Shown one piece after another: positions 45,910 to 60,501 of a stretch of 64,000 nt of DNA (positions within the stretch are counted from its first letter, which is position 1; every line of letters begins with the position of its first letter). The notes under the pieces are model-generated. The model saw nothing but the letters and a program-made list of their open reading frames with translations. It was not told the origin of the DNA and searched no databases. The stretch is from Dehalococcoidia bacterium (GTDB lineage: Bacteria; Chloroflexota; Dehalococcoidia; SM23-28-2; RBG-16-64-32), in the NCBI GenBank assembly GCA_034408935.1, contig DAOUMV010000013.1:50759-114758 (forward strand), written 5' to 3'. The translations under genes were made by a program, and so were the position numbers.

Positions 45910-47157
45910 TCATTCCGCCCGCAGAGCCTCGATGGGGTCGAGGCGGGATGCTCGGAACGCGGGATAGATGCCAAAGAAGAGCCCGATCATGGCCGAGACG
46001 CCGACCGCGGCGGCGATGCTCCAGAGAGTAACCGTCGTCGTTACGGATGATCCGGTGCCGAAGTCCTGGCCGTCGGCGGCCTTCGCGATGAGCACGCCCG
46101 TGAGCACGCCGATCGCTCCACTGACGAGGGTAACGATGATCGCCTCGATGATGAACTGGAGAAGGATGTCGCCCCTGCTGGCGCCGACTGCTTTCCGGAT
46201 GCCTATCTCGCGCGTTCGTTCCGTCACCGATACCAGCATGATGTTCATGATCCCTATTCCGCCGACCACCAGCGAGATGCCGGCGATGGCACCGAGCAGG
46301 ATCGTCAGCGTACGGCTCACTTCTTTGGCTGTGGAGAGGAGATCGTCCTGGGTCTGGACCGTGAAGTCCTCGACGTAGTCGTGACGCTCAAGCAGAAGCT
46401 GTAGGACGTCGTCCTTCGTCTCGTCAACTTGATTGCCCTCAGTTACCTTGACGACGATCTGCTGAACGTTGGACTCGCCGCTTGGGTTGCGTCCGAACGG
46501 CACCCTGGTCTGGAAGGTGGTGAGCGGTATGATGATCTGGGTGTCCTCGTCGCCGCTTCCCCCCGCGCCCCTCGCCTCCATCACGCCTATCACGGTGAGA
46601 TTCAAAGAGAACGGTCCGAAGCTTTCACGTACCTCCTGGCCTATCGCATTCTCCGGTGTGTCGAAGAGCTCTTCGGCGACCGTCGCGCCGAGGACGACGT
46701 TGGTGGTCTTTCGACGCGCGTCCTCATCGTTGATGAACCTGCCGGTCGCGACCTGCCAGCTTCTCACGTACTCGAAGTCCGGCTCGGTGGCGGTTATCGC
46801 CCCTGAGGTACTGAGCCCGTTGCCGGTGATATCGTTCTCCAGATCAAGGTCGTACTGGGAGACCACCGCCTCTACAGACGAGATATCTTTGATCGCGTCG
46901 GCGTCGTCGGTGGTGAGCGTGACCGCACCGACGCCGGTCCGGTCGGCCTGCTCAGTCTCCCCCGCCTCGACAAAGACCAGGTTGCTGCCGAGTCCCCGGA
47001 CCTCCTTGGTCACGCCCTTTTGAGCACCCTGGCCGACGGCTATGAGGGCGATCACCGCTCCCACACCGATAACGATGCCCAGCATGGTGAGGCCGGTACG
47101 GAGCTTGTTCGAGGTGAGCTCCATGAGGGCCGTCCGGATCGTGTCTATGATGATCAT
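45910..47157 (-). CDS. ABC transporter permease (FtsX/MacB-type)
   Basis: Same architecture as neighbour. Confidence 0.82.
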   Translation of the reverse strand: MIIIDTIRTALMELTSNKLRTGLTMLGIVIGVGAVIALIAVGQGAQKGVTKEVRGLGSNLVFVEAGETEQADRTGVGAVTLTTDDADAIKDISSVEAVVSQYDLDLENDITGNGLSTSGAITATEPDFEYVRSWQVATGRFINDEDARRKTTNVVLGATVAEELFDTPENAIGQEVRESFGPFSLNLTVIGVMEARGAGGSGDEDTQIIIPLTTFQTRVPFGRNPSGESNVQQIVVKVTEGNQVDETKDDVLQLLLERHDYVEDFTVQTQDDLLSTAKEVSRTLTILLGAIAGISLVVGGIGIMNIMLVSVTERTREIGIRKAVGASRGDILLQFIIEAIIVTLVSGAIGVLTGVLIAKAADGQDFGTGSSVTTTVTLWSIAAAVGVSAMIGLFFGIYPAFRASRLDPIEALRAE

Positions 47158-47882
47158 TCCGGCTCCCCCTTATGGCCGTCGGGAGGCAGTGCCGCCAGGA
47201 CACGATTGCCCTCCGGCGGCGCGTCCGAGACGATGCGACCGTCGCGGAGTTGGATGACACGGCGCGTATAGGCCGCAAGGTCCATCTCGTGAGTAACGAG
47301 GGCGATTGTGATGCCGCGTTCGCTGTTGAGACGCTCGAACATCTTCATCAAGTCCAGCGAGGTCTTGGTATCGAGGGCGCCCGTCGGCTCATCGGCGAGG
47401 ATCAACGCGGGATTCGCCACCAGCGCGCGAGCGATGGCGACGCGTTGCTGCTCGCCGCCCGATAGCTGCGTCGGCCGGTGGTGGGCGCGCTCTCGCAGGC
47501 CGACCTCCGCCAGGGCACGCATCGCCCGTCTGTGGCGGTGGTTCGCGCCCCGGTAGATGAGTGGCAGCTCGACTTGGGCGATCGCGGGCAGGCGCGAGAG
47601 GAGATTGAATGACTGGAAGACGAAGCCGATGCGCCGACCGCGGATCCTGGCGAGCTGGGCCTCGCTCATGCGGCGCACGTCGCGCCCCTCCAGTTCGTAG
47701 ATGCCGCGCGTGGGCCTGTCGAGACAGCCGAGGATATGCATAAGGGTCGACTTACCAGACCCGGAGGGCCCCACGATGGCCAGGAACTCGCCGCGTTCGA
47801 TGTCGAGGTCGATGCCCCGCAGCGCGGGCACGGGCACGTCGCCGGCGCGATAGATCTTGGTGATGCCGCGCAGGCGTATCAC
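47154..47882 (-). CDS. ABC transporter ATP-binding protein (MacB/LolD type)
   Basis: Walker [10 protein letters not shown], signature [15 protein letters not shown], Walker [12 protein letters not shown]. Confidence 0.9.
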
Positions 47883-49999
47883 GGCATTCCTCCCGGGGCA
47901 GCGCCGCCGGGGAAGCCCTGTCCTTGTCCGGGGGAGAACCCGTCGGGGAAGCCGGGCTCGCCGCCTTCCTGCTCCGTAGTAGACGACGTCGACGTTGATG
48001 AGCGGCTGGGGAGCAGAATCGTCTGACCCTCCTCAAGCCCCCTTACGATCTCCGTGTTCGTTCCATCGCTGAGCCCTGCCTCAACCTCGACGCTCTGGGT
48101 CGATCCGTCCTCCATCAGGACATCGACGTAGCTTCCGCCTCTCATGGTCTGGACGGCCGACGTGGAAACCATGAGGACGTCCTGAGCCTGATCCACAGTG
48201 ATGGTCACAGAGGTGTTCATGCCGGGCAGAAGCTCCGCGACCGATTCGGAGAAATCAGGCATCACGCCGGCGCCGCCAGCCGGAGTCGCCTCCGCATCTG
48301 GAATATCAGCCGACGTCGGTGCTCCGCCAGCGCCAGCCAGTGCACCCGCTAGGTTCCCTCCCAGCGCCTCTAACTCGTCGGCGCTCATGATGGTCGCGTG
48401 TACGGCGTACGTCACCACTCCCTGAGTGGTGGTCGGATTCGTTTCGACGGAGTCGACCACGACGGGCAACCGCGTGTCCTCAAGAGCGTCGAATGTGGCG
48501 ATACCCGTCTGGCCGGACTCAATGTCAGGCACATCGGATTCGGTGACGGTGAGATCGAGACTCACCGCATCGGGAGTGTTGAGGACAATCGCTGCCTCTG
48601 TGCTTGTCTCTCCGGTTCCACCGGCCGATTCCCCTACCTCGATATTGAGCGCCGCCACGGTGCCGTCAAACGGCGCTACGAGCTTCGCTTCCTCCAGGTC
48701 CTCTTCCGCCTTCTCCAAAGAGAGCTCAGCAAGGCGTACCTGGTTTTGCTGGAGCTCGATCTCCTCTATGTCGGCGCCGTCCAACAGGTCGTTGAGCTGT
48801 GCCTGCGCCGTGACGAGTGCCGCAGCGGCTGTGTCAACGTTACCCTGCGCCTCCGCCAGTTCGTCCTCTGTCGGTTTCTCGCTGAGTTCCGCTAGCTGCT
48901 CGATCGCAAGGTCGAGCGCCTCCTGCGCCGACACAACGGCGGCGTCCACCGAGGCTATCTCTTCATCGCTGGGACCGGCCTGTGCGTCCTCGAGATCGTC
49001 CTTGGCCTCTTGCAGATCCTCTTCCGCTGTCTCAACCGCATCGTCGGCGCTGTCCTTCGACGCCACGGCGTTCTCATAGGACGTGTTGGCGGTCAAAACC
49101 TCTGAGGCCTGCTTTGCGACTTCCTTCGAGCCGGTGACCGTGGCCTCCATCAGAACAGCCTCATCTGCAGAGGAGATCGGCGCCGCTCGCTTCGTGCAGA
49201 ACGAGGGAGCACCATCAACGGCGCAATAGCCCGTTTCCACGCTCTTCAACGACGACTCGGCCGACTGAAGGCTACGTGCGGCGTCCTCGGCCTCGCCCTC
49301 GCTGTCCTCCAGCGCGTCCTCCGCCATCCTCACGGCTTCTTCGGCGGCGTCGATCGCTTCCCCGCTTGCCTCGTAGAGGTTTTCGCGAGACTCTTCCGCC
49401 TGGGCCACCTGTCCTTCCGCTGATGTTACCGATTGCTCCGCTGAGAGGGTCTCAACTTCGGTGGGCCCGTCCAGCGTTTCGTCGAGCGCACGCTGCGCCT
49501 GATCCAAGCTGACCTGCGCTTGCGCCACGCTCTGCTCGGCCGAGGCTATTTCGGCCTCGTCGGGGTCCTTCAAGAGCTGGCTCAGATTGACCTGGGCTGA
49601 AGCAAGGTTCACCTCCGCTTCTGTCGTGGCTCGCTTCAGCTCGTCTGACTCAAGCTTGGCAAGCACGTCTCCCTTCTTGACTTCCTGCCCGATGCTGACC
49701 TTCACAGCCGATACGGTCCCGGACTGGCTGAACGATATCTCCGCCGTTGACTGTGAGACGACGACGCCGCTCGTGCTGACCGTCGTAGTGATGGAGCCCC
49801 GCTCCACCGTCGCCGTCTGGGTTTCCTCCGCTGTGGAGCTGCCGCCAGCCAGCGCCAGCGACCAGAGCGCGTAGGCGCCCGCGGCGATCAGGGCTGCGAG
49901 CACCGCGAGGCCAATCAAGCGGCCACGCCAGCGGTGCCCGCCGCCATCCAGCAGATCGTCGTATTCGTCTATCTCATCGAGGACGGGCGAGTCACTCAT
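47879..49999 (-). CDS. Periplasmic adaptor (MacA/HlyD family) with unusually long coiled coil (706 aa)
   Basis: N-terminal TM anchor, beta-barrel/lipoyl segments flanking a very long Glu/Ala-rich coiled coil; Gly/Pro-rich C-terminal tail. Confidence 0.75.
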   Translation of the reverse strand: MSDSPVLDEIDEYDDLLDGGGHRWRGRLIGLAVLAALIAAGAYALWSLALAGGSSTAEETQTATVERGSITTTVSTSGVVVSQSTAEISFSQSGTVSAVKVSIGQEVKKGDVLAKLESDELKRATTEAEVNLASAQVNLSQLLKDPDEAEIASAEQSVAQAQVSLDQAQRALDETLDGPTEVETLSAEQSVTSAEGQVAQAEESRENLYEASGEAIDAAEEAVRMAEDALEDSEGEAEDAARSLQSAESSLKSVETGYCAVDGAPSFCTKRAAPISSADEAVLMEATVTGSKEVAKQASEVLTANTSYENAVASKDSADDAVETAEEDLQEAKDDLEDAQAGPSDEEIASVDAAVVSAQEALDLAIEQLAELSEKPTEDELAEAQGNVDTAAAALVTAQAQLNDLLDGADIEEIELQQNQVRLAELSLEKAEEDLEEAKLVAPFDGTVAALNIEVGESAGGTGETSTEAAIVLNTPDAVSLDLTVTESDVPDIESGQTGIATFDALEDTRLPVVVDSVETNPTTTQGVVTYAVHATIMSADELEALGGNLAGALAGAGGAPTSADIPDAEATPAGGAGVMPDFSESVAELLPGMNTSVTITVDQAQDVLMVSTSAVQTMRGGSYVDVLMEDGSTQSVEVEAGLSDGTNTEIVRGLEEGQTILLPSRSSTSTSSTTEQEGGEPGFPDGFSPGQGQGFPGGAAPGGMP

Positions 50000-50026
50000 C
50001 TCATAGCCCCCTATGTGGCTTTTTGT

Positions 50027-50095
50027 AGCTGATATTTCCAGCGTACTCTGCTGTCGTTAAGGAGGAGTTGGAGAAGGATTAGAGTTCCCTAATCC
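50027..50095 (-). promoter_or_regulatory. Conserved cis-element copy 1 (upstream of adaptor/ABC efflux operon)
   Basis: TTAGGGAACTCTAAT inverted repeat + CCAAC + TTAACGACAG block, 30-95 nt upstream of start codon. Confidence 0.55.
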
Positions 50096-50146
50096 GCGAG
50101 CGCCGCGAGACGGCTTTCTTTCATCGGCGAGTCGAGAGGTTGTGCG

Positions 50147-50365
50147 TCAAGGCGTCGCGCCCGCAAACGAGGTCTGCCGTGGCCTCGCCGGCGAAGGCGC
50201 TATCCTTGCCGCTGCAGGCTCAGTCGCCGCCTCCACGGGAACGATGCGCGCGCATTGGAGGCAGCGCCACTCCGGCTCGTCGCTGAGGTCGAGGTAGGCG
50301 TCGCCACCGCATCTGAGGCAGCAGCGAAGACGAAACGCCCGGTTCGATCCAGTTACCATCCCCAC
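50147..50365 (-). CDS. Small zinc-ribbon protein (72 aa)
   Basis: CxxC-x15-CxxC; GGAGGA RBS; directly downstream of htrA. Confidence 0.4.
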   Translation of the reverse strand: MGMVTGSNRAFRLRCCLRCGGDAYLDLSDEPEWRCLQCARIVPVEAATEPAAARIAPSPARPRQTSFAGATP

Positions 50366-50386
50366 CGCTCCTCCGGCCCCGGCAGC

Positions 50387-51505
50387 TCATCCCCTGTAGT
50401 CGCTTGGGAACGCGGCCAGAGTAGCCGACAGCTCCAGGGTGTCCTCTCCACGAACCACGGTCAGCGTCACGTCGTCTCCCGCCTTTTTGCCGTTCAGGAA
50501 GCTGATCAGGTCCTCGATGCTTTCAACCGGCTCTCCGTCGACGGCGGTGATGACGTCCCCACCTGCGTCGGGTTCCCCCTGAAACGTAGTGCCACCGCCC
50601 CGGAGCCCGGCGTCATCGGCCGGACTTCCGGAGACGACATCCAACACGTATGCTCCCCGGTCGACCGTGAGGTCTAGGGCTTCCGCCATCTCGCCGGTGA
50701 GGGTCGTGCCGCCGATCCCCAGCCAAGGGCGTTCAACCGTGCTCCCTTCCGTCAGGCGGGACAGGACTCCCTTGGCGGTATCGATTGGGACAGCGAAGCC
50801 CACTCCGTCCGCTGACTGACTTTCGATGGCGGTGTTGACGCCGATGACCTCCCCGTCAGAGTCGAGTAAGGGCCCGCCGGAGTTGCCGGGGTTGAGAGCG
50901 GCATCGGTCTGGATGACGCCGGTGATGGGGCGGCCGTCGTCACCGGTCAGGCTCCGGTCGAGGCCGCTGACGACGCCGACGGTTATCGTGCCCTCAAGCT
51001 CGTAGGGGCTGCCGAGGGCGATGGCCATCTGGCCCGGCTGCAGGTCGGTGGAGTCCCCCAAAGTGAGGGGCGTGATGTCCGAGACCTCAGAAGCGTCAAC
51101 CTCCACCAGGGCGAGGTCGTCCGCGGAATCGACCCCGAGCACCTCACCATCGAGCTCTGTGTCGTCGCTGAGGGTCACGGTCACGCTGGATGCGTCGTCC
51201 ACTACGTGACTGTTGGTGAGGATGTGCCCCGCGTCATCGATGAGAAACCCTGATCCGGTGCCTACGCCCACGCTAATCTGGACCACGGCTGGGATCGCCT
51301 CATCGTAGATGTCAACTACCTGCTGCTCTTCGACCAACGCTGGCCCCGTTGCCACGGGCTCCGCCTGGACCGACTCCTCTGCAGCAGTGTCCGCGGCAGA
51401 GGTGCCCGACTCAGAGCCGGAGTCAAGGCTCAGGGCCACGAGCGAGATGGCAAGCGCAGCGATGGCCATAAGGGCCGTCACTCCCAACGCGAGCTTCGTC
51501 TTCAT
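50387..51505 (-). CDS. htrA: HtrA/DegP-family serine protease with PDZ domain
   Basis: Catalytic triad context (TNSHVV, DLALV, GNSGGPL), C-terminal PDZ; signal/TM N-terminus. Confidence 0.9.
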
Positions 51506-51537
51506 CGCCTTCCTCCCTCTTCACTTCCCGAGTGACT

Positions 51538-51600
51538 TCTGAATCCAAGGTAAGTCCCTGACGTTAAAACGGTATTGGCGGAAGATTAGATTTCTCTAGT
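51538..51600 (-). promoter_or_regulatory. Conserved cis-element copy 2 (upstream of htrA)
   Basis: CTAGAGAAATCTAAT + CCAAT + TTTAACGTCAG + TGGATTCAGA. Confidence 0.55.
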
Positions 51601-51703
51601 GTGACGCGATCTGTTTGGCGCAGCTCGATGGGGTGCACAAGCGAAAAGGGGGGAGGCCAGGCAAGCACCTGGCCTCCGTCCATGCGCGTTTGCGAGGCAG
51701 CCT

Positions 51704-52381
51704 CTAGGCCGTCACATCGGACGTTTCGGTGGTCTCGGACTCCTCATCGTGATCGGAGAAGGGGGCGAACCACATTCCGCCGAAACCGCGCGGACCGCCC
51801 CGCATGCTGCCGAAAGCGTGGAAACACCCCTCGGCGTTGACGATTCCGTCGATCATGCCTTCGGTGTGCTGGTAGAAGTCGTCGGCCTGGTCCTGGGTGA
51901 GATCGCCGTCGGAAACCATCTCATCGAGCTGCGCCTTGATCTTGTCAAGGAGCGCCGCCTTGAAGTCGTCCACGCTCATCCCCTGAGCCTCGGCCAGCTC
52001 GGCAAGGGAGTTGCCGTCCGCGAGTTGCTCCATCAGGTCGGCGCGGGTCATGCCCAGCACGTCGGCGGCGTTCTTCATCACGTCGAAGTGGGCGCGCCAT
52101 ATTCCACCGTGGAGCCCGCGGAAGAAGAAGTTGCCTTCCCGCAGCCGCTCTCCCTGCTCCTCCGTAAGGCGCCCCTCGTCCACCGCCTCGTCGATGGTCT
52201 CGTCTCTTGCCTCGTCGATGGCGGTCTTGAGCTCGTCCTCGCTGACACCCAGCTTCTCGGCGACCTTGGCGAGGAACGACCCAACGAGCCCATCGTCCTC
52301 ATCGGCCGCCGCCCCGCTGATGGCCACGACGCCCAGGGCCAGGACGGCGACCGCCACCGCTATCATCAGCAGCCTCTTCAC
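51704..52381 (-). CDS. LTXXQ-motif (CpxP/Spy-like) secreted protein, paralog 1
   Basis: Signal peptide; LTEEQ and LTQDQ motifs; GTG start with GAGGAGG RBS (aligned to paralog 2 MKRLMIIAV). Confidence 0.7.
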   Translation of the reverse strand: MKRLLMIAVAVAVLALGVVAISGAAADEDDGLVGSFLAKVAEKLGVSEDELKTAIDEARDETIDEAVDEGRLTEEQGERLREGNFFFRGLHGGIWRAHFDVMKNAADVLGMTRADLMEQLADGNSLAELAEAQGMSVDDFKAALLDKIKAQLDEMVSDGDLTQDQADDFYQHTEGMIDGIVNAEGCFHAFGSMRGGPRGFGGMWFAPFSDHDEESETTETSDVTA

Positions 52382-52431
52382 CTCTGCACCTCCTCGCATT
52401 GCCTCTTCATGGCGTTAGTTCTCCCAAGGCA

Positions 52432-52494
52432 TCTGAATCCAAGATAGGTGGCTGTCGTTAAACGGGCATTGGAAAGAGATTAGAATTCTCTAAT
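52432..52494 (-). promoter_or_regulatory. Conserved cis-element copy 3 (upstream of LTXXQ paralog 1)
   Basis: TTAGAGAATTCTAAT + CCAAT + TTTAACGACAG + TGGATTCAGA. Confidence 0.55.
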
Positions 52495-52573
52495 GTGGGC
52501 GGTGACTTGCCCGAACGGGCGGAGGTCGGGTTCATACCCGACCCCCGCCCTGTCCGGTTCGCGGCCGCTGCGC

Positions 52574-53239
52574 CTAGGCCGTCACATCGGACGTCTCCGT
52601 GGTTTCGGACTGGTCATCGGGAGGGGAACCGAACTGCGGCCCGCCGAAACCACCTGGGCCGGGCCTCATGCCGCCGAAACCGGGGCCACAGCCCGTGCCG
52701 GCCACGATGTCGTCGATGTTGTCCTGGGTGCGCTGGAGCATCTCGTCGGCCTGGTCCTGAGTAAGGTCGCCTGCGGCAACCGATTCATCGAGCTGGGTCT
52801 TGACCTGATCCAGGAGCGCGGCCTTGAAGTCGTCTTCGCTCATGCCCTGAGCCTCGGCCACGTCGGCCAGCGAGTTGCCGTCCTGCAGTTGTTCCATGAG
52901 GTCGTCCTTGGTCATGCCCAGCACCTCAGCGGCAGCGGTCCTGATGTGCACGCGCTCATGCCCCATTCGCCCACCGCCGAAGGGGAAGTCACTCTCCTGC
53001 AGCCGGTCAGCCTGTTCCTCGGTGAGGCTACCATCAGCCACGGCCTCATCCAGCGTCTCGCTCCGGGCCTCGTCGATGGCGGTCTGAAGTTCATCCTCGC
53101 TCACGCCCAGCTTCTCGGCGACCCTGGCGAGGAACGACCCGACGAGCCCGTCGTCTTCCTGGGCGGCCGCCCCGCCAATGGCCACGACGCCCAGGGCCAG
53201 GACGGCCGCCGCCACTGCTATTATCATCAGTCTCTTCAT
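52574..53239 (-). CDS. LTXXQ-motif (CpxP/Spy-like) secreted protein, paralog 2
   Basis: ~70% identical to paralog 1 including identical C-terminal ...SETTETSDVTA. Confidence 0.75.
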   Translation of the reverse strand: MKRLMIIAVAAAVLALGVVAIGGAAAQEDDGLVGSFLARVAEKLGVSEDELQTAIDEARSETLDEAVADGSLTEEQADRLQESDFPFGGGRMGHERVHIRTAAAEVLGMTKDDLMEQLQDGNSLADVAEAQGMSEDDFKAALLDQVKTQLDESVAAGDLTQDQADEMLQRTQDNIDDIVAGTGCGPGFGGMRPGPGGFGGPQFGSPPDDQSETTETSDVTA

Positions 53240-53342
53240 CTGTCACCTCCTTGTCGTGTTGTGATCTTGTCAGCGATTCCGGCGTGGTCGGCTACGTCAT
53301 TCTCTTCATCTGCACACCTCCTTGTGTGACCTCCTGTGTGAC

Positions 53343-53407
53343 TGCTGAATCCAGCGTAGAGCGCTGTTGTTAGGGAGGCGTTGAAGCAGGACTAAAATTT
53401 TCTAATG
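53343..53407 (-). promoter_or_regulatory. Conserved cis-element copy 4 (upstream of LTXXQ paralog 2, divergent from two-component operon)
   Basis: TTAGAAAATTTTAGT + TCAAC + CTAACAACAG + TGGATTCAGC. Confidence 0.5.
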
Positions 53408-53478
53408 CAGCTAGCCTTGTTCTCTAATGATCTCTTAATCTTGGCGCCCTACAATGTGTCGTAAGGAGGAGCTTTCGG

Positions 53479-54150
53479 GTGTATGTCCTAATAGTGGAAG
53501 ACGAGCGGCGGCTGGCCCAGGTGGTAAGCAAGGTCCTGGAGGAGGAGGGCCACACGGTCGACGTCTCCTACGACGGGGAGGAGGGGCTGGCGATGGGAAT
53601 GGAGGGCTCCCACGACGTCATCGTTCTGGACATCCTGCTGCCCGTCATGGACGGACTGGAGGTGTGCCGCGCCCTCCGCGCCAACCGGGTCGATACCCCC
53701 GTGCTCCTCCTGACAGCCCTGGACGCGGTCGAGGACCGCGTGCGCGGGCTGGACGCCGGCGCCGACGATTACCTGCCTAAGCCGTTCGCCTTCCAAGAAC
53801 TGCTGGCCCGCCTGCGCGCATTGGGTCGCCGGCGCGTGCAGGTCCGTGAGCCCGATCGACTTCGCGCGGCAGATCTCATGCTGGACCTGCGACGGCGCCG
53901 CGCAGAGCGCAACGGCAAGACCATCGAGCTCAGCCCTAAGGAGTTCGCCCTGCTGGAGTTCCTCATGCGCAACGAGGGCCGCGTCGTCACACGCACCCAG
54001 ATCCTGGATCACGTGTGGGGGTACGAGTACTCGCCGGACTCCAACCTGGTGGACGTGTACGTGACATACCTGCGGCGCAAGGTGGATCGAGGCCACGACC
54101 GCAGCCTCATCCGCACCGTGCGCGGCACCGGCTACGCTCTGGAGGAGTAA
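53479..54150 (+). CDS. OmpR-family response regulator
   Basis: Receiver (VEDE...DILLP, T, K) + winged helix (LSPKEFALLEFLMRNEGRV...VRGTGYAL); GTG start with AAGGAGG RBS. Confidence 0.9.
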   Translation: MYVLIVEDERRLAQVVSKVLEEEGHTVDVSYDGEEGLAMGMEGSHDVIVLDILLPVMDGLEVCRALRANRVDTPVLLLTALDAVEDRVRGLDAGADDYLPKPFAFQELLARLRALGRRRVQVREPDRLRAADLMLDLRRRRAERNGKTIELSPKEFALLEFLMRNEGRVVTRTQILDHVWGYEYSPDSNLVDVYVTYLRRKVDRGHDRSLIRTVRGTGYALEE

Positions 54151-54151
54151 C

Positions 54152-55426
54152 ATGTTCGGCGCGGCACGCTGGCGTCTCACGCTCTGGTTCGCCCTGGCGT
54201 TCGGGGCCATCCTGCTGGTCATCGGCGCGGCGGTGTACCTCACCACCCGCGCCGTCCTCTTCGACCAGGTGAATGACGACCTCGAGTCGCGGGCGGGGCG
54301 GGAGGAGCGCGTGCTCACGCCGCGGCTGCCGGGGCGCGGTCCCGGCGGTCCTGTGCGCGACATCGTCATCGGGCCGACGTTCACGACTGCGGGCTACTTC
54401 TACGCCCTGGTCGACTCCACAGGCGAACTCCTGGCCGGGACCGCCAACGTCGACCCTGCCGGCCTGGTCAGTGAGGACGCCCTCCAAAAAGCGCTCGCCG
54501 ACGGCGTCGCCTTCGCGGACACCAAGTCGTCTGAGGGGGACTCGCTGCGGGTCTACGTGGTGAGCCTGGGGACATCAGAAGATGATGAACTGCTGATGGA
54601 GGTGGGGCGGAGCACGGAGCCGGAGGAGCAGGCGCTTCAACGGCTGCTGCTGGTGCTGATCGGCGGCGGCGGCGCCGGCCTGGGCCTGGCCCTCGTCGGC
54701 GGCTACGCCCTCGCCGGTCGAGCCCTGCGCCCCATCCGATCGGCGATGGACTCCCAGCGGGCCTTCATCGCCGACGCCTCCCACGAGCTGCGGACACCGC
54801 TATCGGTGATCCGCGCCAACGCGGAGCTGATGAAGCGTCACTCCAGGGAGCCCGTCCGCACCAACGGAGAGGCGGTGGACGACATCATCGGCGAGTCGGA
54901 CAGGCTGGCGAGGCTGGTGGGCCAGATGATGACGCTGGCCCGGATCGACGCCGGCCAGGCATCGTTGTCCCTGTCCGAGGTGGCGCTGGACGAACTGGCG
55001 GAGGAGGTTGCGCGCGGCATGCGCCTGCTGGCCGAACGTCGCGGCGTCGCGTTCGAGGCCGCTGTGGACGGCCCCCTGCCCGTACGGGGGGATAAGGACC
55101 GCCTGCGGGAGCTGATCGTGATCCTGAGCGATAACGCCATCAAGTACACGGACGCGGGCGGCCGGGTGCGACTGGAGGTGCGCCGCGCCTCCGGCGGGAA
55201 GACCACGGTGCGGGTCACGGATACGGGGCACGGGATACCCCCGGAGGCGCTGCCCCACATCTTCGACCGGTTCTACCGCGTGGACAAGGCGCGGTCGCGG
55301 CAGGCGGGTGGCACGGGGCTGGGGCTGGCGATCGCGAAGTGGATCTCGGAGGCGCACGGGGGCTCCATCCGGGCGGAGAGCGCCCCCGGTGTGGGGAGCT
55401 CGTTCACGGTAGAGCTGCCGGCGTAG
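54152..55426 (+). CDS. Sensor histidine kinase
   Basis: Two TM helices, HAMP, H-box ASHELRTPL, HATPase N/G boxes. Confidence 0.9.
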   Translation: MFGAARWRLTLWFALAFGAILLVIGAAVYLTTRAVLFDQVNDDLESRAGREERVLTPRLPGRGPGGPVRDIVIGPTFTTAGYFYALVDSTGELLAGTANVDPAGLVSEDALQKALADGVAFADTKSSEGDSLRVYVVSLGTSEDDELLMEVGRSTEPEEQALQRLLLVLIGGGGAGLGLALVGGYALAGRALRPIRSAMDSQRAFIADASHELRTPLSVIRANAELMKRHSREPVRTNGEAVDDIIGESDRLARLVGQMMTLARIDAGQASLSLSEVALDELAEEVARGMRLLAERRGVAFEAAVDGPLPVRGDKDRLRELIVILSDNAIKYTDAGGRVRLEVRRASGGKTTVRVTDTGHGIPPEALPHIFDRFYRVDKARSRQAGGTGLGLAIAKWISEAHGGSIRAESAPGVGSSFTVELPA

Positions 55427-55537
55427 CGGGGCGGCCGCCCTGCATCAGACCGCCCCAAGAGGAGAGACGCAGCCGGACTTGACATCAGCAAGTGCACATG
55501 GTGTCTACTACCTGCAGACTAATCGAGGAGGATCATC

Positions 55538-55819
55538 ATGCTGTTCGTCGTCACTCACGAGCACACGCCCGAGCTCTGCCCAACGGACGACCCGGCGCCG
55601 GTGCACAAGCTGACCGACAAGAACCACATCAAGGAGTCGGGGGTGAAGGTGGTGGGGAGCTATATAGCGTCCCTCGAGCACGTCCTCTTCTTCGTGCTGG
55701 AGGCGGACGACTACGCCCAGGTGGTGCGGTACTTGCGACCGATCATGAAGATCGGCACGCCGGACATCGTGCCGGCTCAGACGCTGTCCAGGGGCCTCGG
55801 CCCCTTCTACAAGGGATAG
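55538..55819 (+). CDS. Small conserved hypothetical protein (93 aa), paralog A
   Basis: RBS GAGGAGG; MLFVVTHEHTPELCP... ; 75-80% identical to 56073-56354. Confidence 0.6.
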   Translation: MLFVVTHEHTPELCPTDDPAPVHKLTDKNHIKESGVKVVGSYIASLEHVLFFVLEADDYAQVVRYLRPIMKIGTPDIVPAQTLSRGLGPFYKG

Positions 55820-55845
55820 ACGGCCAGGCGTCCTTCCGCCACTAG

Positions 55846-55929
55846 GGCGACGGAGGCTCCGGGGGCTCCATCCGGGCGGAGAGCGCCCCCGGCGTGGGGA
55901 GCTCGTCTACGGTAGAGCCGCCGGCGTAG
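55846..55929 (+). pseudogene. Duplicated fragment of histidine-kinase 3' end (last ~21 codons + stop)
   Basis: ~82 bp 95% identical to 55362-55443; in-frame remnant GGSIRAESAPGVGSSSTVEPPA*. Confidence 0.7.
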
Positions 55930-56072
55930 CGGGGCGGCCGCCAGGGCGAGGCTGCAGGCGGGCCTTCTACAGGCTCCCTTGACGGGCAGGCAGGACGAAC
56001 GGCGTCAACATCCGGGGGCGCTGGTCGTGTCGTATCCCGATAGTACCCGCTGACGAATCAAGGAGAGAAACT

Positions 56073-56354
56073 ATGCTGTTCGTTGTTACTCATGAGCACA
56101 CGCCGGAGCTCTGTCCGTCGGACGATCCGACGCCGGCACATAAGCTGGCGGACGAGAAGCACATCAAGGAGTCGGGGGTGAAGGTGGTGGGGGCGTGGGT
56201 GGCGCCGCCGGAGCACACCTTCTACCTGGTGCTGGAGGCGGACGAGTACGGCCACGTGGTGAGGTACCTGCGGCCGATGATGAAGATCGGGACGCCGGAC
56301 ATCGTGCCGGTGCAGGAGCTGAGCGACACGCTGAACCACTTCCCGAAGCGGTAG
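56073..56354 (+). CDS. Small conserved hypothetical protein (93 aa), paralog B
   Basis: RBS AAGGAGAG; tandem duplicate of 55538-55819. Confidence 0.6.
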   Translation: MLFVVTHEHTPELCPSDDPTPAHKLADEKHIKESGVKVVGAWVAPPEHTFYLVLEADEYGHVVRYLRPMMKIGTPDIVPVQELSDTLNHFPKR

Positions 56355-56456
56355 GGTGCCGGGGGCGCTGCGCTGCCCCGCCCCGATGTTGTCCGTCCCG
56401 CCCAGCCACCTCCGAAGGGATTCAGGCTTCGCCCCACCACCCCATGCCGTGGGCCG

Positions 56457-56651
56457 GGGAATAGAATACCGCCGACTGAAGTGCGCGGGAATGGATTCCC
56501 TGCTAGCGTAGCGGCTCAGCCCGGGCCGAGGGTGAAAGGGGAATAGAACACCGCCGACTGAAGTCGGCGGCATGAGAGAGAGCCGCGCACTTCAGTGCGC
56601 GGGAACGGATTCCCTGCCAGCGTAGCAGCTCACGCCGGGCCGAGGGTGAAG
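56457..56651. repeat. Tandem direct repeat (83-bp unit, second copy carries 31-bp hairpin-forming insertion)
   Basis: GGAATAGAA(T/C)ACCGCCGACTGAAGT...GCGCGGGAA(T/C)GGATTCCCTGC...CCGGGCCGAGGGTGAA; palindromes GCCGACTGAAGTCGGC and CGCGCACTTCAGTGCGCG; overlaps 3' end of convergent gene. Confidence 0.65.
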
Positions 56652-56992
56652 GCGTCGTCGATGACGTAGAGCCAGGTGCCGTCGGGCTGACGGCGGGCGA
56701 CCTCGACGGCGCGGCCGGACATGGCCTGCGGGCTGGCGATGCTCCAGCGGGAGTAGGAGAGGGCGATGTCGCCAGCGAGAATCACCTTGTCGGTCTCCAC
56801 GGTGATGTCGGGCTTCATGGCGACGCGGGGGGCCATGTCCTGGCGGATGGCGTCGGTACCGGTGCGGACTTCGCCCTGCTGGTTGGGCTTGCTGGCGCCG
56901 GGCTCGAAGATGGCGAGGAGGGCGTCGAGGTCCCCGTCCTTCATCGCCTGGGAGAAGAGCTGGCCGAGGTCTTCGGGCTTCTGCGCGGGCAT
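56630..56992 (-). CDS. SnoaL-like/NTF2-fold protein (DUF4440-like)
   Basis: Size and pattern (DLDALLAIFEPGA...WLYVIDDAF) typical of NTF2-like superfamily. Confidence 0.55.
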   Translation of the reverse strand: MPAQKPEDLGQLFSQAMKDGDLDALLAIFEPGASKPNQQGEVRTGTDAIRQDMAPRVAMKPDITVETDKVILAGDIALSYSRWSIASPQAMSGRAVEVARRQPDGTWLYVIDDAFTLGPA

Positions 56993-57155
56993 GAGGGGGC
57001 TCCTTCCGGATGCGGATCGTTGGGGTGAATGGTATGGGCGGCGCGGGCCGCCGGTCAAGGGTAGGGGTGGCCACCCCACCCCAATGTTGTTGGTCCCGCC
57101 CGGCCCGCCCCTGAACTCCGTTCAGGGTTGGCCCCACCCCGGGGCTACGAGCGGC

Positions 57156-58223
57156 TCAAGGGGTGGAAGGCGATGCGGATGACGCCGCCTCAACTCTGAA
57201 CGTTCGCACTTCTTCGTACGTCGCGTCATCACGGAGTTCCTCCGCAAGGAACTCAACCCAATCATCCGTATACAGATAGTCGCCGTGTGGCTCGTCGTAC
57301 TGGCAGTACTTGGTCTGGCAGTCAACTGGGTCTTGGGCACCGACAGGCGGGCGTACCTCCCAGTGCTTCCATGCCCGTGTGTGCGTGTCCATGTTGAACG
57401 CCTTTGGTGCTATCTTCGCGGCTACCAGCGGCACGACGTGAGAGGGCTTGAGCTTGCCCTTGCTCACTACAGCCACTGTTCGCGGCTTAATAAGAGCCAC
57501 CGTCTTGTCGTATTCTCGCGTGTGGTCAGGATCATAGTGCACGAACTCTACCGCTAGGGCGTCCTTTGAACGATGGCCTGCAAGCATAGGGATGAGGAAG
57601 ACCTTGTAACTGTAAGCCATATCACCCAGAACGTCTGGGCTCAGGGAACTCCGAAAGTCGGCCACGTAGGTCTTGATGTCAGCATTGGCAGGTGCAGATA
57701 GCAAGCGCCGCATCGCTTCTCGAGCCTTCGGGTCTCGCGCTCTGGAAAACTGCAGTGAGAAGGCGAGATTCGTGTCAAGCGCAAGGCGATCACTAAACTC
57801 CTGCACGAGGAAGTCTTCGAAGTTGATCAAGAGGGCCTGACACTCTCCAAAGATGTCAAGATCGATTTCGGGCGCATCAGCGTGTTCAATCAAGTTCCGC
57901 AGGCCGATGAAGAACCGCAGATTCTGCCTAGTCGCGTCGTCTTTTTGGCCCCAGTGCTGGCGAACGCATTCACTCAGATCCCAGGTCTTCGGTCTGCCGT
58001 CAATCCGCTCGAAGTGGATAGAGTTTGGCCTTCGGTACCAGGGTTTGATTCCGCGTTTCCAGAAGACTGCGTGGAAGAGGGCGGCCCAGGCCAGGTGCAT
58101 CGGAACTACGTACGTGCCCGATTTGAACGTGGTCAACGGATTGTTGTAGGCACCGACAGCGTGAAGCGCTTGTTGCCGCGCCTTGGCTACCAGTTGTCGC
58201 GCCCTAGATACGCCTCTTGGCAT
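57156..58223 (-). CDS. Low-GC hypothetical protein with Rx4H (HEPN-like) motif; possible Abi-type defence protein
   Basis: Local GC ~52-55% vs ~68% background; motif LRNLIEH; 355 aa. Confidence 0.5.
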   Translation of the reverse strand: MPRGVSRARQLVAKARQQALHAVGAYNNPLTTFKSGTYVVPMHLAWAALFHAVFWKRGIKPWYRRPNSIHFERIDGRPKTWDLSECVRQHWGQKDDATRQNLRFFIGLRNLIEHADAPEIDLDIFGECQALLINFEDFLVQEFSDRLALDTNLAFSLQFSRARDPKAREAMRRLLSAPANADIKTYVADFRSSLSPDVLGDMAYSYKVFLIPMLAGHRSKDALAVEFVHYDPDHTREYDKTVALIKPRTVAVVSKGKLKPSHVVPLVAAKIAPKAFNMDTHTRAWKHWEVRPPVGAQDPVDCQTKYCQYDEPHGDYLYTDDWVEFLAEELRDDATYEEVRTFRVEAASSASPSTP

Positions 58224-58241: not shown

Positions 58242-59621
58242 CTACTGGCCTCTCTTCTTGACCTCCTGATCTGGCTGCCTCCCTCGCAGTCGCTCCATGT
58301 GCTCCGCTATTCGCTTCTCCCAGCCGATGTCGCCGGGGACGTAGTAGCGGCGGCCGGAGAGCTTCTTCGGCAGGTGCTCCTGGCCGGAGTGGTGCTCCGG
58401 GAAGTAGTGGTCGTACTTGTAATCGCGGCCGTAGCCCAGCTCCTTCATCGTGTCGGTGACGGGGTTGCGCAGGTGGAGGGGGACAGGCTCGTTGCGGGTG
58501 GCCTTGGCGTCCTTGAGGGCGCGCATGTACGCCGAGCCAACGGAGTTCGACTTGGGGGCGGTGGCGAGGTAGATGGTGGCCTCGGCCAGGGGGTAGAAGC
58601 CCTCCGGCATGCCGACGAAGTGGACGGACTGCTGGGCGGCGACGGCGACCTGGATGGCGTGGGGGTCTGCCAGGCCCACGTCCTCGGAGGCGAGGATGAC
58701 GAGCCGGCGGGCGACGAAGAGGGGGTCCTCGCCGCCCTCGATCATGCGGGCGAGCCAGTAGAGGGCGGCGTCGGGGTCGGAGCCGCGGAGGGACTTGATG
58801 AAGGCGGAGATGATGTCGTAGTGCCAGTCGCCGGCGCGGTCGTAGAGGGCGGCGCGGTGCTGCAGCGCCTCCTCGATGTCGGCCAGGGCGACCGTGCGCA
58901 CGCCCTTCCCATCCGCCTGAGCGGACTGGGCGGCGAGCTCGAGGGCGTTGAGGGCGATGCGGGCGTCCCCGGCGGCGGCCTGGGCCAGCCCGGCGACGGT
59001 GTCGTCGGCGATCTCTATGCGCATGGGGGCCAGCCCGCGCTCCTCGTCGCCGAGGGCGCGGCGGAGGATGACCTCGACCTGCTCCGGGGTCAGCGCCTCG
59101 AGGGTGAACACGCGGCAGCGGGAGAGCAGCGGCGAGATCACCTCGAAGGAGGGGTTCTCCGTCGTGGCGCCGATGAGGGTGACGGTGCCATCCTCGACAT
59201 AAGGGAGGACGGCGTCCTGCTGGGCCTTGTTGAAGCGGTGGATCTCGTCGATGAAGAGGATGGTGCGCTGCTCGTGCATGCCGAGGCGGTCGCGGGCCTC
59301 GTCGACGATGCGGCGGAGGTCGGCGACGCCAGCGGCCACGGCGGAGATGGGCTCGAACTGGGACTGGGTCATGCCGGCGACGATGCGGGCGAGGGTGGTC
59401 TTGCCGGAGCCGGGCGGCCCCCAGAGGACGACGGAGGGGACCTCGTCGGCCTCGATCGCCTTGCGCAGGAGGCGACCCTCGCCCACGAGGTGCTCCTGGC
59501 CGACGAACTCTTCGAGGGTCTGGGGCCGCATACGAGCGGCGAGGGGGGCCTGGCGGGCGGCGCGACGGGCGCCGGCCTGGGCGAACATGTCGGGGGCTTT
59601 GGAACGCTTGTGGGCCCGCAT
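58242..59621 (-). CDS. rarA: Replication-associated recombination protein A (AAA+ ATPase)
   Basis: Walker A GPPGSGKTT, Walker B ILFIDEIHRF, MgsA C-terminal domain. Confidence 0.9.
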   Translation of the reverse strand: MRAHKRSKAPDMFAQAGARRAARQAPLAARMRPQTLEEFVGQEHLVGEGRLLRKAIEADEVPSVVLWGPPGSGKTTLARIVAGMTQSQFEPISAVAAGVADLRRIVDEARDRLGMHEQRTILFIDEIHRFNKAQQDAVLPYVEDGTVTLIGATTENPSFEVISPLLSRCRVFTLEALTPEQVEVILRRALGDEERGLAPMRIEIADDTVAGLAQAAAGDARIALNALELAAQSAQADGKGVRTVALADIEEALQHRAALYDRAGDWHYDIISAFIKSLRGSDPDAALYWLARMIEGGEDPLFVARRLVILASEDVGLADPHAIQVAVAAQQSVHFVGMPEGFYPLAEATIYLATAPKSNSVGSAYMRALKDAKATRNEPVPLHLRNPVTDTMKELGYGRDYKYDHYFPEHHSGQEHLPKKLSGRRYYVPGDIGWEKRIAEHMERLRGRQPDQEVKKRGQ

Positions 59622-59642
59622 ATCGCCAGTATTATCGCACGT

Positions 59643-59669
59643 TTGTGCTGAGACGACCAGAGTTATAAT
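59643..59669 (+). promoter_or_regulatory. Promoter with consensus TATAAT 8 nt upstream of ATG (leaderless-type)
   Basis: TTTGTG-N16-TATAAT then ATG at 59677 with no SD. Confidence 0.45.
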
Positions 59670-59676
59670 ACTGGCC

Positions 59677-60501
59677 ATGCAGCCGCAGGAACTGCGCAAG
59701 ATCGCCGAGGGCCGTGAGGCGGAGATGTTCGCTTTGGAGCCCGGCACGATCTTGAGGCTGTACCGGGACCCCGAGCGCCAGAGCGCGGCGCAGTGGGAGG
59801 CGGCAGCGCTGAAGGCGGCGGCGGACCGCGGGGTGCGAGTGCCCGCCGTTCACGAGCTGACGACGGTGATGGGACGGCCGGGGCTGATCATGGAGCGCAT
59901 CGAGGGGCCGGACCTGCTGACGCTGATGGGACGGCGCCCCTGGACGGTGTTCCAGGCGGGCCGCATCTGCGGCGAGGTGCACGCTCGGCTGCACGCCGCA
60001 GAGGCGCCCAGGAGGATGCCCGCCGTCCGGGACACTCTCCGACAGTGGATGGCGTCATCCTACCGGCTGCCCAAACACCTCGCGGAGTTCGCTCTGGACA
60101 TCTTGAAAGGTTTGCCAGACGGCGAAAGCCTGTGCCACGGCGACTTCCATCCGGGGAACATCTTGATGTCGGGGGAGACACCCGTGGTGATCGACTGGAC
60201 GAACGCCAGGCGGGGTGACCCGGCAGCGGATGTCGGCCGCAGCCTGGTGTTGTTCCGCGTCGGGGAGCCCCTGCCGGGAATGCCCGCCTTAGTACGTTAC
60301 CTGCATGTGCTGGGCAGCAAGATCGTGACGTGGGGCTATCTTCGGGCCTACCGTCGGGTGCGGCCCCTCGATATGGCCGTCGTCGAGCGGTGGGTGGTGG
60401 CACACGCCGCGGCACGGCTGGCCTTCGAGCACATCCCGGAGGAAGAGGGAGCGCTGCGAAGGCTGCTCGAGCGGCGCTACGCCAGGCCTGACACTCCCTA
60501 G
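59677..60501 (+). CDS. Aminoglycoside/phosphotransferase-family kinase
   Basis: Brenner motif CHGDFHPGNIL and IDW motif. Confidence 0.75.
   Translation: MQPQELRKIAEGREAEMFALEPGTILRLYRDPERQSAAQWEAAALKAAADRGVRVPAVHELTTVMGRPGLIMERIEGPDLLTLMGRRPWTVFQAGRICGEVHARLHAAEAPRRMPAVRDTLRQWMASSYRLPKHLAEFALDILKGLPDGESLCHGDFHPGNILMSGETPVVIDWTNARRGDPAADVGRSLVLFRVGEPLPGMPALVRYLHVLGSKIVTWGYLRAYRRVRPLDMAVVERWVVAHAAARLAFEHIPEEEGALRRLLERRYARPDTP

Follow-up and report, generated by a model that had tools for sequence, protein, structure and literature searches.

A probably recent copy of a histidine kinase gene end between two old DUF3303 paralogs in a Dehalococcoidia bacterium

In a 64,000-nt stretch of a Dehalococcoidia bacterium contig (hereafter the window), the 3' end of a sensor histidine kinase gene occurs a second time, between two similar 93-aa genes, A and B. 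How did this second copy arise, and did the two small genes arise together with it? A preliminary description of the sequence explained the arrangement by one segmental tandem duplication. Our analyses point to a different history. We consider it reasonably probable that the second copy, R2, is a recent local copy of the kinase 3' end that was joined to the 3' flank of gene A and to a truncated repeat element, E, and that A and B are old paralogs, likely metal-binding. The features around R2 are given below, and L numbers denote loci of relatives.

53479-54150 (+): OmpR-type response regulator, RR (Pfam Response_reg and Trans_reg_C).
54152-55426 (+): sensor histidine kinase, HK, intact (Pfam HisKA and HATPase_c).
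55357-55439 (+): R1, the source copy, comprising the last 67 coding nt of HK, its TAG stop and 13 nt downstream (repeat search).
55450-55537 (+): leader of gene A, TTGACA...GGTGTC...GAGGAGG, common to the relatives' DUF3303 units; homology with L008 begins here (alignments).
55538-55819 (+): gene A, DUF3303, 93 aa, A clade (Pfam PF11746, 23.5 bits; NJ tree).
55820-55859 (+): 3' flank of gene A, with a GC-rich hairpin, kept downstream of A orthologs (alignment with L002-L004 and L110; fold).
55860-55863 (+): junction microhomology CGGG, common to the A flank (...GGCTCCGGG/CAC in relatives) and HK (...CACGGGGGCTCC).
55860-55942 (+): R2, the dead copy of the HK 3' end (repeat search).
55943-56005 (+): 3' fragment of the repeated intergenic E element, ...CTTCTACAGGCTCCC...GGGCAGGCAGGACGAACGG (blastn to L001 1845-1888 and L108 2993-3064).
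56006-56072 (+): leader of gene B, with homology to those of other DUF3303 units.
56073-56354 (+): gene B, DUF3303, 93 aa, B clade (Pfam PF11746, 32.8 bits; NJ tree).

R1 and R2 form a direct repeat, with R1 503 nt upstream, and are identical at 79 of 83 nt. This similarity is beyond chance: a 31-mer from R1/R2 has exactly two occurrences in the window, and 100 shuffles produced none. The preliminary description had the kinase end reappear as ~82 bp at 55846-55929. That repeat is real, but its start was set ~14 nt too early because 55846-55859 is, according to the relatives, gene A's own 3' flank. The in-frame reading of the fragment was recovered as first written, and R2 translates as GDGGSGGSIRAESAPGVGSSSTVEPPA between two stops, one of them in frame just upstream, with no start codon. 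Both copies end in a 10-nt palindrome, GGCGGCCGCC.

Three of the four differences between the copies are specific to R2 (F to S and L to P), and the fourth is synonymous. The substitutions put Ser at position 16, occupied by F, V, M or L in 92 of 92 orthologs, and Pro at position 20, which is Leu in all 92. At the synonymous site, R2 has the state of L108, L110 and L112. These differences would fit a copy of the resident allele that decayed afterwards. A search with the repeat across 112 loci recovered intact kinase genes only, and no kinase fragment was found in relatives.

We compared the two small genes with each other and with their orthologs. They are identical at 220 of 282 nt (78%), close to the ~80% first reported, and at 66 of 92 aa (72%); a repeat of 281 nt (D1, 80%) starts 32 nt upstream of each ATG. 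Coding conservation of both ORFs is borne out by purifying selection, with dN/dS of 0.47 for A versus B, 0.29-0.37 for A versus its orthologs and 0.09 for B versus L001. The corresponding dN values are 0.21, 0.05-0.08 and 0.03. A and B belong to different clades of the family tree, and each has closer orthologs in other Dehalococcoidia (identity table, NJ tree). By these measures, A and B are anciently diverged paralogs, both of them predicted to be still functional. An exact look-up of the gene B product returned no record.

The kinase fragment is more conserved than the genes, as had been noticed (4 of 83 versus 62 of 282 differences, Fisher P = 1.5e-4; P = 1.5e-10 against the genes' synonymous rate). 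R2 is much younger than the A/B pair because it is absent from relatives, including the closest one, whereas the genes are old paralogs. The leaders had been called completely diverged. This holds for their distal parts, which differ because they derive from different sequences (a repeat-element fragment for B, 25 nt of kinase-downstream sequence for A), but over the proximal ~75 nt the leaders of the whole family are homologous. A DUF3303 unit is small and self-contained, comprising a conserved leader of ~75 nt, a gene of 93 codons and a hairpin at the 3' end. Gene B lacks the hairpin flank and is ~63 nt shorter there than L110 and L001 (flank comparison). The TTGACA of the leader is only a lead because a scan of 55.3-56.7 kb for sigma-70 promoters and intrinsic terminators gave no match.

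Synteny among relatives separates the history of R2 from that of the genes. Loci L111 and L001 overlap at 98-100% identity and together represent the closest relative, with 88% (kinase) and 95% (B) amino acid identity. Its order is RR-HK-E-orf72(-)-B-E-SnoaL(-)-E, with neither gene A nor a kinase fragment. L110 has a single DUF3303 gene between HK and RarA, while L008 reads NUDIX-HisPhos-A-E-defence genes-RarA without the whole 11.4-kb kinase block, and in L006 gene A lies on the far side of SnoaL. Gene A orthologs occur in at least four other contexts with no kinase. Relatives carry no or one DUF3303 unit in the HK-rarA region, and the present genome carries two (A and B). A pre-event state, either HK-A-flank-full E-B or a tandem (R-A)(R-A), was seen in no relative, and no relative was found in which HK is directly followed by gene A.

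The left junction is placed at 55860-55863 because the A flank reads ...GACGCAGGCTCCGGGCACGCTG in L002-L004 and ...GACGGAGGCTCCGGGGGCTCCATCC in the window. The CGGG lies within a 12-nt imperfect match, GGAGGC..CGGG. On the right, R2 runs straight into an E element that lacks its 5' part, and the R2/E junction showed no clear microhomology. The 8-9 nt after R2 (AGGGCGAGG) resemble the L111 sequence found 13 nt past the end of the kinase repeat; from this likeness, R2-E-B could be the original junction between kinase and B, and R1-A a later one. The 12 nt after R1 (CTGCATCAGACC) do not follow R2.

We infer the following course of events and mode of repair. The HK 3' end would have been copied from the resident gene 503 nt upstream, and the copy would have been joined to the gene A 3' flank at the 4-nt microhomology CGGG. 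The other end of R2 would have been joined inside the E element preceding gene B, with loss of the E 5' part. Two paths could lead to this arrangement. On one, kinase end, A and flank would have been duplicated in tandem (503 nt), and a later deletion would have removed the second A copy together with part of E; on the other, there would have been only one deletion, with a templated patch used in its repair. In our reading, R2 would be an ordinary recombination scar, a non-functional by-product of a recent local rearrangement. It matters only as a dated scar, a sign that the HK-rarA stretch may be actively rearranged by microhomology-mediated events.

Some weight, though on balance we find it unlikely, goes to recombination between locus variants HK-A and HK-(E)-B, on the cell's own chromosome or on DNA coming in from a close relative, with R2 as the end of a second kinase allele. 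One illegitimate crossover between the A 3' flank and the other copy's HK 3' end, anchored by homology at another place (homology-facilitated illegitimate recombination or unequal exchange), would cover both the tandem arrangement and R2, and the same CGGG microhomology would apply. HK-DUF3303 adjacency with different DUF3303 types in L108, L110 and L111+L001 agrees with such variants, as does the resemblance of the sequence after R2 to the L111 kinase-downstream sequence. However, R2 departs from the resident HK by one synonymous site and three degenerative changes only. The kinase genes of relatives are 12-16% divergent in DNA, so the other allele would have to be near-identical. The missing HK-A relative and the different sequences following R1 and R2 also speak against this exchange.

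A very unlikely account, in our judgement, is the preliminary description's own, in which kinase end, leader and DUF3303 gene were duplicated in tandem long ago and gene conversion from the intact HK kept R2 at 95%. R1-leader-A and R2-leader-B do resemble a unit repeated every 503-535 nt, and conversion between close direct repeats does occur. A single segmental duplication is nevertheless contradicted by A and B not being each other's closest kin and by the closest relative, which has neither A nor the fragment; no kinase fragment lies beside the orthologs of B (L001/L111) or of A (L002-L006, L008). Divergence along the supposed unit is uneven, at 95% identity in the kinase fragment, unrelated sequence next, and 78-80% in leader and gene. 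The A flank/kinase end junction fits an end-to-start join, and R2 has a second junction, with the truncated E. The sequence from R2 to the B leader is an E fragment rather than diverged A upstream sequence. R2 also carries unrepaired disabling changes. The tree and synteny have largely refuted this model. The suggested recent re-duplication came close, as the fragment is the younger part, whereas conversion is not needed because the A and B clades are separate, the closest relative has neither gene A nor R2, and A orthologs sit in other contexts. Very unlikely indeed is retention of R2 for a function, as a terminator or RNA element between A and B, a small regulatory RNA or decoy with a relation to the HK mRNA, or a translated peptide. 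R2 shows more conservation than the non-coding DNA on either side and ends in a palindrome, but its good conservation follows from its youth. R1, R2 and the A-flank-R2 junction fold no better than shuffles (z = -0.2 to +0.9), R2 has no Rfam match and no terminator-like or promoter-like sites, its reading frame has a stop and no start, and it is absent from all relatives (112 loci). Nothing relevant emerged when 53.3-58.3 kb of the window and loci L001, L003 and L008 were scanned against Rfam at E <= 1. That assembly created the arrangement, through a chimeric join or a wrongly assembled repeat in a contig from metagenome data, we regard as extremely improbable. The source is apparently an uncultured Dehalococcoidia, and short repeats can confuse assemblers; against this, the copies are non-identical (4 mismatches) and only 83 nt long, and both flanks of each are collinear with independent sequences in relatives.

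The recent local copying that we favour would have taken place in a hypervariable stretch. Between HK and rarA lie DUF3303 units, a SnoaL-like gene, small ORFs and defence genes, with modular E repeats between them. Downstream of gene B the window contains the following features.

56374-56446 (+): 5' module of an E element (nhmmer).
56435-56650 (+): second small duplication, two 102-nt copies 114 nt apart and 75% identical (repeat search).
56630-57079 (-): SnoaL-like/DUF4440 protein (Pfam).
57074-57168 (+): another E element, lying between the start of SnoaL and the stop of DUF3644 (nhmmer, 73 bits).
57156-58223 (-): DUF3644 protein, the PADLOC candidate defence protein PDC-S19 (Pfam; PADLOC 1.4e-118).
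58242-59747 (-): RarA-like ATPase, the conserved right anchor (tblastn/blastn to L008, L110, L112 and L006).

The B-E-SnoaL block is kept in L001. Copy 2 of the 102-nt duplication overlaps the 3' end of the SnoaL-like gene, and copy 1 contains a dead piece of this 3' end; this duplication lies 0.6 kb from R2 and is older. The slot adjoining RarA that is here occupied by the DUF3644 gene holds other genes in L006, L008, L110 and L112, and no PADLOC model matched A, B or the SnoaL-like protein. Scanning 267 kb (the window and related Dehalococcoidia loci) revealed 18 E copies, all in one orientation and nearly all in or beside the variable region adjoining rarA. E elements extend into the 3' ends of several unrelated genes on the minus strand. 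The locus can be described as a compact variable defence-gene slot in uncultured Dehalococcoidia, bordered by modular repeats.

We consider it quite improbable that the DUF3303 units and their neighbours are mobile self-expressed cassettes shuffled by recombination at E and that, separately, the DUF3303 proteins are new His-Cys-His metalloproteins tied to Zur/Fur-type metal homeostasis. If true, the E-shuffled cassettes would amount to a cassette system of Dehalococcoidia that works without an integrase or has so far escaped recognition. A Pfam scan of 42.7-59.7 kb found no recombinase genes. Another reading that we weighed makes the 11.4-kb kinase block a mobile island with att-like repeats, gained by insertion or lost by deletion. 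The block has ~20-nt imperfect direct repeats on both sides, its left-edge 38-mer follows the HK stop in L110, and its base composition is not distinctive.

The position of A and B directly downstream of a two-component system had led to the proposal that they are new members of its regulon. A protein-database search found the HK product as an identical protein, P0052, on a 351-kb NCBI contig, together with many orthologs at 70-88% identity; a metagenome scan with HK yielded distant kinases only (best 69% identity), none of them with DUF3303 downstream. Three of five close HK orthologs (L108, L110 and L111+L001) have a DUF3303 gene 0.3-0.9 kb downstream, and the remaining two (L109 and L112) have none. 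Many DUF3303 genes also occur with no two-component system nearby (L008, L010, L099-L107). Within the kinase block, an operator-like motif, GATTAGAnTTCTCTAATG, lies inside a 66-nt conserved region in four copies (50077, 51584, 52478 and 53390) upstream of the block's transcription units. No copy was found near gene A or gene B with up to three mismatches allowed. Regulon membership is unsupported because the motif is missing from both leaders and the linkage to HK is inconsistent among relatives. The neighbouring two-component system probably does not act on A and B directly, and the DUF3303 units probably have their own upstream control region. This calls for caution in reading gene adjacency in the HK-rarA stretch as co-regulation.

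The small proteins themselves had been credited with invariant HEH and Cys residues and a possible metal site. Across 110 representatives, His9, Cys14 and His48 are near-invariant; the first His of the HEH motif, H7, is present in 64 of 111 and E8 is not conserved, which refines the earlier motif. The AlphaFold model (pLDDT 85.2) has a b-a-b-b-a-b topology with ferredoxin-like matches in the PDB, and the three residues lie at the end of strand 1, in the next loop and at the start of strand 3. DUF3303 genes repeatedly adjoin metal and redox genes (Fur-ZnuABC, ferritin, AhpC). A metal site is thus plausible, and conservation, fold and context suggest that A and B are most likely small cytoplasmic ferredoxin-like proteins binding metal via H9, C14 and H48. 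The trio, the confident ferredoxin-like model and the metal/redox neighbours make a concrete, cheaply testable hypothesis.

To our knowledge, DUF3303 (PF11746) is an uncharacterised family of ~90-aa proteins. We found no paper mentioning the family and no solved structure, and a PDB sequence-profile search was empty below E 0.8; the His-Cys-His triad and the metal-related contexts come from this analysis and not from published annotation. A and B resemble the family in being ~93-aa single domains with a nearly full-length match (profile positions 1-80/86 of 92) above the gathering threshold of 21.2 bits, but their low scores mark the Dehalococcoidia/Chloroflexi subfamily as a divergent branch. 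In the predicted model they share the ferredoxin-like fold of a small stand-alone protein with SCO4226 (DUF4242) of Streptomyces coelicolor, an 82-aa nickel-binding protein (PDB 4oi3/4oi6; PMC4186839). No sequence-family relation between them was detectable (Pfam gives DUF3303 only at E <= 0.01), and the candidate ligands of A and B are the near-invariant His-Cys-His trio.

At the level of the locus, the HK-rarA stretch resembles integron cassette arrays in its small, often uncharacterised genes, in the ~70-190-nt related repeats between them and in content that varies among close relatives. The likeness is one of layout only, as the genes here lie in both orientations and the DUF3303 units have their own conserved leader. 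Identity of E elements with integron attC sites was dropped on inspection: reading the sequences revealed no GTTRRRY/RYYYAAC core sites.

R2 itself compares best with the gene-fragment relics of bacterial genomes, which arise from microhomology-mediated tandem duplication or from a deletion repaired with a templated patch. Like these, it is a short direct repeat of a gene end near the intact gene, with a 4-nt microhomology, no start codon and decaying conserved codons. It differs in lying not beside its source but beyond a complete gene unit, and in being fused to a truncated repeat element, and its formation would therefore have involved at least two breakpoints.

A repeat search of the window recovered an 83-nt direct repeat (R) whose copies agree at 79 of 83 positions. 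One copy ends a sensor histidine kinase gene (HK) and the other lies between two DUF3303 genes, A and B.

53479-54150, OmpR-type response regulator gene (RR)
54152-55426, HisKA/HATPase_c sensor kinase gene (HK)
55357-55439, R1, source copy of the direct repeat
55538-55819, gene A, 93 codons
55860-55942, R2, fragment copy of the direct repeat
56073-56354, gene B, 93 codons

R takes in the final 67 coding bases of the kinase gene, its TAG stop and the next 13 bases, which end in the palindrome GGCGGCCGCC. A 31-mer taken from it occurs exactly twice in 64 kb and never in shuffled sequence. The kinase 3'-end duplication reported in the preliminary description is confirmed, with the start of the fragment shifted by 14 nt. 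R2 translates as GDGGSGGSIRAESAPGVGSSSTVEPPA; it has no start codon, and a stop lies in frame immediately before it. RNA folding, Rfam, promoter and terminator scans gave no sign of R2 function, and searching R against all 112 loci from relatives matched intact kinase genes only. As had been claimed, the fragment is significantly better conserved than the genes (4/83 versus 62/282 differences, P = 1.5e-4; P = 1.5e-10 against the synonymous rate). Three of the four differences fall in R2, giving F-to-S and L-to-P at positions that are F/V/M/L and L in 92/92 kinase orthologs; at the fourth, a synonymous site, R2 agrees with three relatives (L108, L110 and L112). On this pattern R2 is best read as a copy of the resident allele in early decay, rather than as a diverged second allele or a conserved element.

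The junctions involve the E element, a modular, GC-rich repeat of ~185 nt, with a 5' module (CCCCACCCCnGTGTT..GTCCCGCCCGGCCCGCC..CTGAAC..GTTCAG..GGCCCCACCCC) and a 3' module (..CTTCGACAGGCTC..GGCGGGCAGGCAGGACGAACGG..GGGCTACGAGCGGCTCA). Eighteen copies were found in 267 kb (the 64-kb window plus related Dehalococcoidia loci), in a single orientation and clustered in the variable region bounded on the right by rarA. E has no Rfam match, and at its 3' end it runs into the stop and final codons of several minus-strand genes that are unrelated to one another.

Window 56374-56446 and 57074-57168, E copies; 55963-56005, E fragment
L001 17-199, 1045-1227 and 1688-1890, E copies
L003 445-669, E copy
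L008 6459-6541 and 9739-9816, E copies
L111 1841-2024, E copy

In L002-L004, the flank of A reads ...GACGCAGGCTCCGGGCACGCTGAGAG and then enters an E element. In the window, it reads ...GACGGAGGCTCCGGG and then GGCTCCATCC..., switching into kinase sequence (HK: ...GGAGGCGCACGGGGGCTCCATCC). The CGGG common to both sequences at 55860-63, within a 12-nt imperfect match, is the crossover point. R2 ends at the same base where R1/R2 similarity stops, and the 63 nt directly 3' of it correspond to the 3' portion of the E elements found in L001, L004 and L108; this E lacks its 5' part. The repeat is real but ordinary: R2 is a young pseudogene fragment that probably marks a microhomology-mediated rearrangement.

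A and B themselves are related by a 281-nt repeat (80% identity) that begins 32 nt upstream of both ATGs; between the genes, identity is 78% at the DNA level and 72% at the protein level. By identity counts and a neighbor-joining tree, A groups with P0028, P0024 and the L008 homolog, and B with P0001-P0005, adjoining P0009, P0012 and P0013. For each of the two, many sequences are closer than the other gene is, and dN is 0.21 between A and B versus 0.03-0.08 within clades. By these comparisons the two are long-separated paralogs rather than a pair newly formed in place. Both show purifying selection, with dN/dS of 0.09 between B and its ortholog and 0.29-0.37 between A and its orthologs. Their leaders, described earlier as completely diverged, share a conserved ~75 nt (TTGACATCCG...GGTGTCGTATCAGG...GAGGAGG-ATG) and therefore are not; the distal parts do differ, being different sequences. 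Most copies of the unit have a GC-rich hairpin after the stop. Gene B lacks this ~63-nt 3' flank (GCGTCCGTC...GACGGACGC in L110), which is present after other DUF3303 genes, including A and the L001 B ortholog (window 56355-56375 compared with L110 2735-2800 and L001 958-1040), and its stop is almost directly followed by an E element.

Of the loci compared, only the window has two DUF3303 genes. L111, with the closest kinase ortholog (88% aa), and L001, the contig whose B ortholog is closest (95% aa), overlap at 98-100% identity. Combined, they read RR-HK-E-orf72(-)-B-E-SnoaL(-)-E-orf96(-), with neither gene A nor the kinase fragment. Other kinase orthologs are followed by 340 nt, one DUF3303 gene, E, two pentapeptide genes and RarA (RR-HK order in L110, kinase 86% aa), by 525 nt and one DUF3303 gene (L108, 84%), by holA (L109, 84%) or by five small ORFs and RarA (L112, 84%). 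Orthologs of A (85-91% DNA identity) are flanked by E elements in L002 and L004, adjoin a methyltransferase in L003, and lie between SnoaL and a TIR gene beside RarA in L006. L008 (Dehalococcoidia W31_80), whose RarA, NUDIX and HisPhos are ~90% identical in amino acids to those of the window, reads NUDIX-HisPhos-A-E-GmrSD-like/HEPN-RarA. It lacks counterparts of window 55839-57073 and of an 11.4-kb block (44061-55464) that encodes two MacB-like permeases, an ABC ATPase, an HlyD-like protein and HtrA and also contains two DUF2680-like genes and the two-component system.

Compared with L008, this block forms a clean indel, bordered by imperfect direct repeats of ~20 nt (CGCCnCCAGAnnCGGC-like; edges compared at window 44058-44096 and 55450-55470, L008 5905-5945 and L110 2112-2150). 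The 38 nt after the window HisPhos stop match those after the L110 kinase stop at 34/38 positions, and TTTGGTCGTTTT occurs three times after the latter. In L112, an IS1595-family transposase (2128-3063) lies directly 5' of the response-regulator gene. The slot adjoining rarA is filled by different genes from one relative to the next and looks like a defence-gene hotspot; the window gene lies in a locally low-GC stretch (0.585).

Window 57156-58223, minus strand, DUF3644 protein gene (PADLOC candidate PDC-S19, E 1e-118)
L008 6745-8258, GmrSD/NsnA-like protein plus HEPN
L006 809-2197, TIR protein
L110 2907-5417, pentapeptide-repeat proteins
L112 5303-7384, five small ORFs

Elsewhere in the window, the last 45 nt of tRNA-Gly(TCC) (14738-14811) are repeated exactly at 18899-18943, 4.1 kb downstream. 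A tRNA 3' end repeated in this way typically marks an element that has integrated at the tRNA gene (attL/attR).

A recent event at this locus fits the data. It could have been a 503-nt tandem duplication (55360-55862) followed by loss of the second A copy and part of the next E, or a single deletion whose repair used a templated patch of 83 nt, copied from 503 nt upstream. In both cases the setting would be a region whose content of DUF3303 units, SnoaL, small ORFs and defence genes changes from relative to relative. An older duplication including the SnoaL 3' end (56435-56650) sits 0.6 kb away, so such duplications recur here. Its two 102-nt copies, 114 nt apart, share 75% identity. Copy 2 runs into the SnoaL-like gene (56630-57079, minus strand), taking in its last codons and stop, and copy 1 carries a dead fragment of that gene end. 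Two palindromes, CGCCGACTGAAGTCGGCG and GCGCACTTCAGTGCGC, lie within the unit; copy 1 resembles copy 2 after deletion of 32 nt between these palindromes.

The leading alternative is that two variants of the locus, HK-A and HK-E-B, underwent an illegitimate crossover. This would explain the tandem arrangement in one step and is supported to some degree by the bases after R2, which resemble sequence downstream of the L111 kinase gene. However, the second kinase allele would have to be nearly the same as the resident one, and the HK-A haplotype was not seen among the loci compared. The segmental tandem duplication of the preliminary description holds in part for the fragment and fails for the genes. 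Taken as an old duplication of the whole unit with conversion of the fragment, it conflicts with the placement of A and B in separate clades and with the absence of R2 in relatives.

A and B had also been put forward as candidate new members of the regulon of the two-component system. A 66-nt conserved region containing the inverted repeat GATTAGAnTTCTCTAATG, also found in L109 and L110, is probably the operator or promoter of this system's envelope-stress regulon.

50031-50096, upstream of the HlyD/MacB efflux operon
51538-51603, upstream of HtrA
52432-52497, upstream of DUF2680a
53344-53409, upstream of DUF2680b, between it and the divergent RR-HK operon

The region is not in the A or B leaders, and DUF3303-kinase adjacency is inconsistent among close kinase orthologs (seen in L108, L110 and L111+L001, not in L109 or L112), leaving regulon membership unsupported. 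A better explanation of the linkage is that the two border one and the same variable region. No terminator was found in the 111-nt kinase-A gap, and there may be read-through into A. The DUF2680-like pair (51704-52399 and 52574-53239, minus strand; secreted or membrane proteins of 231 and 221 aa), 74-81% identical in DNA including upstream regions, represents a true tandem duplication of a gene within the kinase block; two such genes are present in L112 as well, and only one was seen in L109.

Two results keep their value: a variable region punctuated by repeats has been described next to rarA, and DUF3303 has gained a testable metal-site hypothesis. A and B both match Pfam DUF3303 above its threshold, and no NCBIfam model matches either. 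Close homologs number about 50, nearly all of them 93 aa in length and from Dehalococcoidia or Chloroflexi metagenome bins, and an HMM search of 1.84 billion cluster representatives gave 379 clusters. In relatives further away, the genomic contexts have a metal or redox flavour: Fur-ZnuA-ABC-ABC3-DUF3303 with TldD/PmbA-family genes and AhpC after it; HtrA...DUF1059-DUF3303 adjoining ferritin, ABM, CMD, SnoaL and a cNMP-binding regulator; and NUDIX-HisPhos-metallo-beta-lactamase (MBL)-DUF3303, with NUDIX-HisPhos-(MBL)-DUF3303 likewise in more distant Dehalococcoidia.

Across 110 representatives plus B (n=111), H9 (106/111), C14 (109/111), H48 (110/111), P68 and P79 are near-invariant. Of the "invariant HEH and C" noted previously, H9 and C14 stand; H7 occurs in 64/111, and neither E8 nor H30 is conserved. 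The AlphaFold model is confident (pLDDT 85, pTM 0.72) and has a b-a-b-b-a-b ferredoxin-like fold, with H9 at the end of strand 1, C14 in the next loop and H48 at the start of strand 3. Since strands 1 and 3 are antiparallel neighbours in such a fold, these three residues should come together in the predicted structure. A known protein used for comparison is SCO4226 of Streptomyces coelicolor (PMC4186839), which is ferredoxin-like and binds nickel. The best PDB matches are the NikR metal-binding domain and the muconolactone-isomerase-like ClcF.
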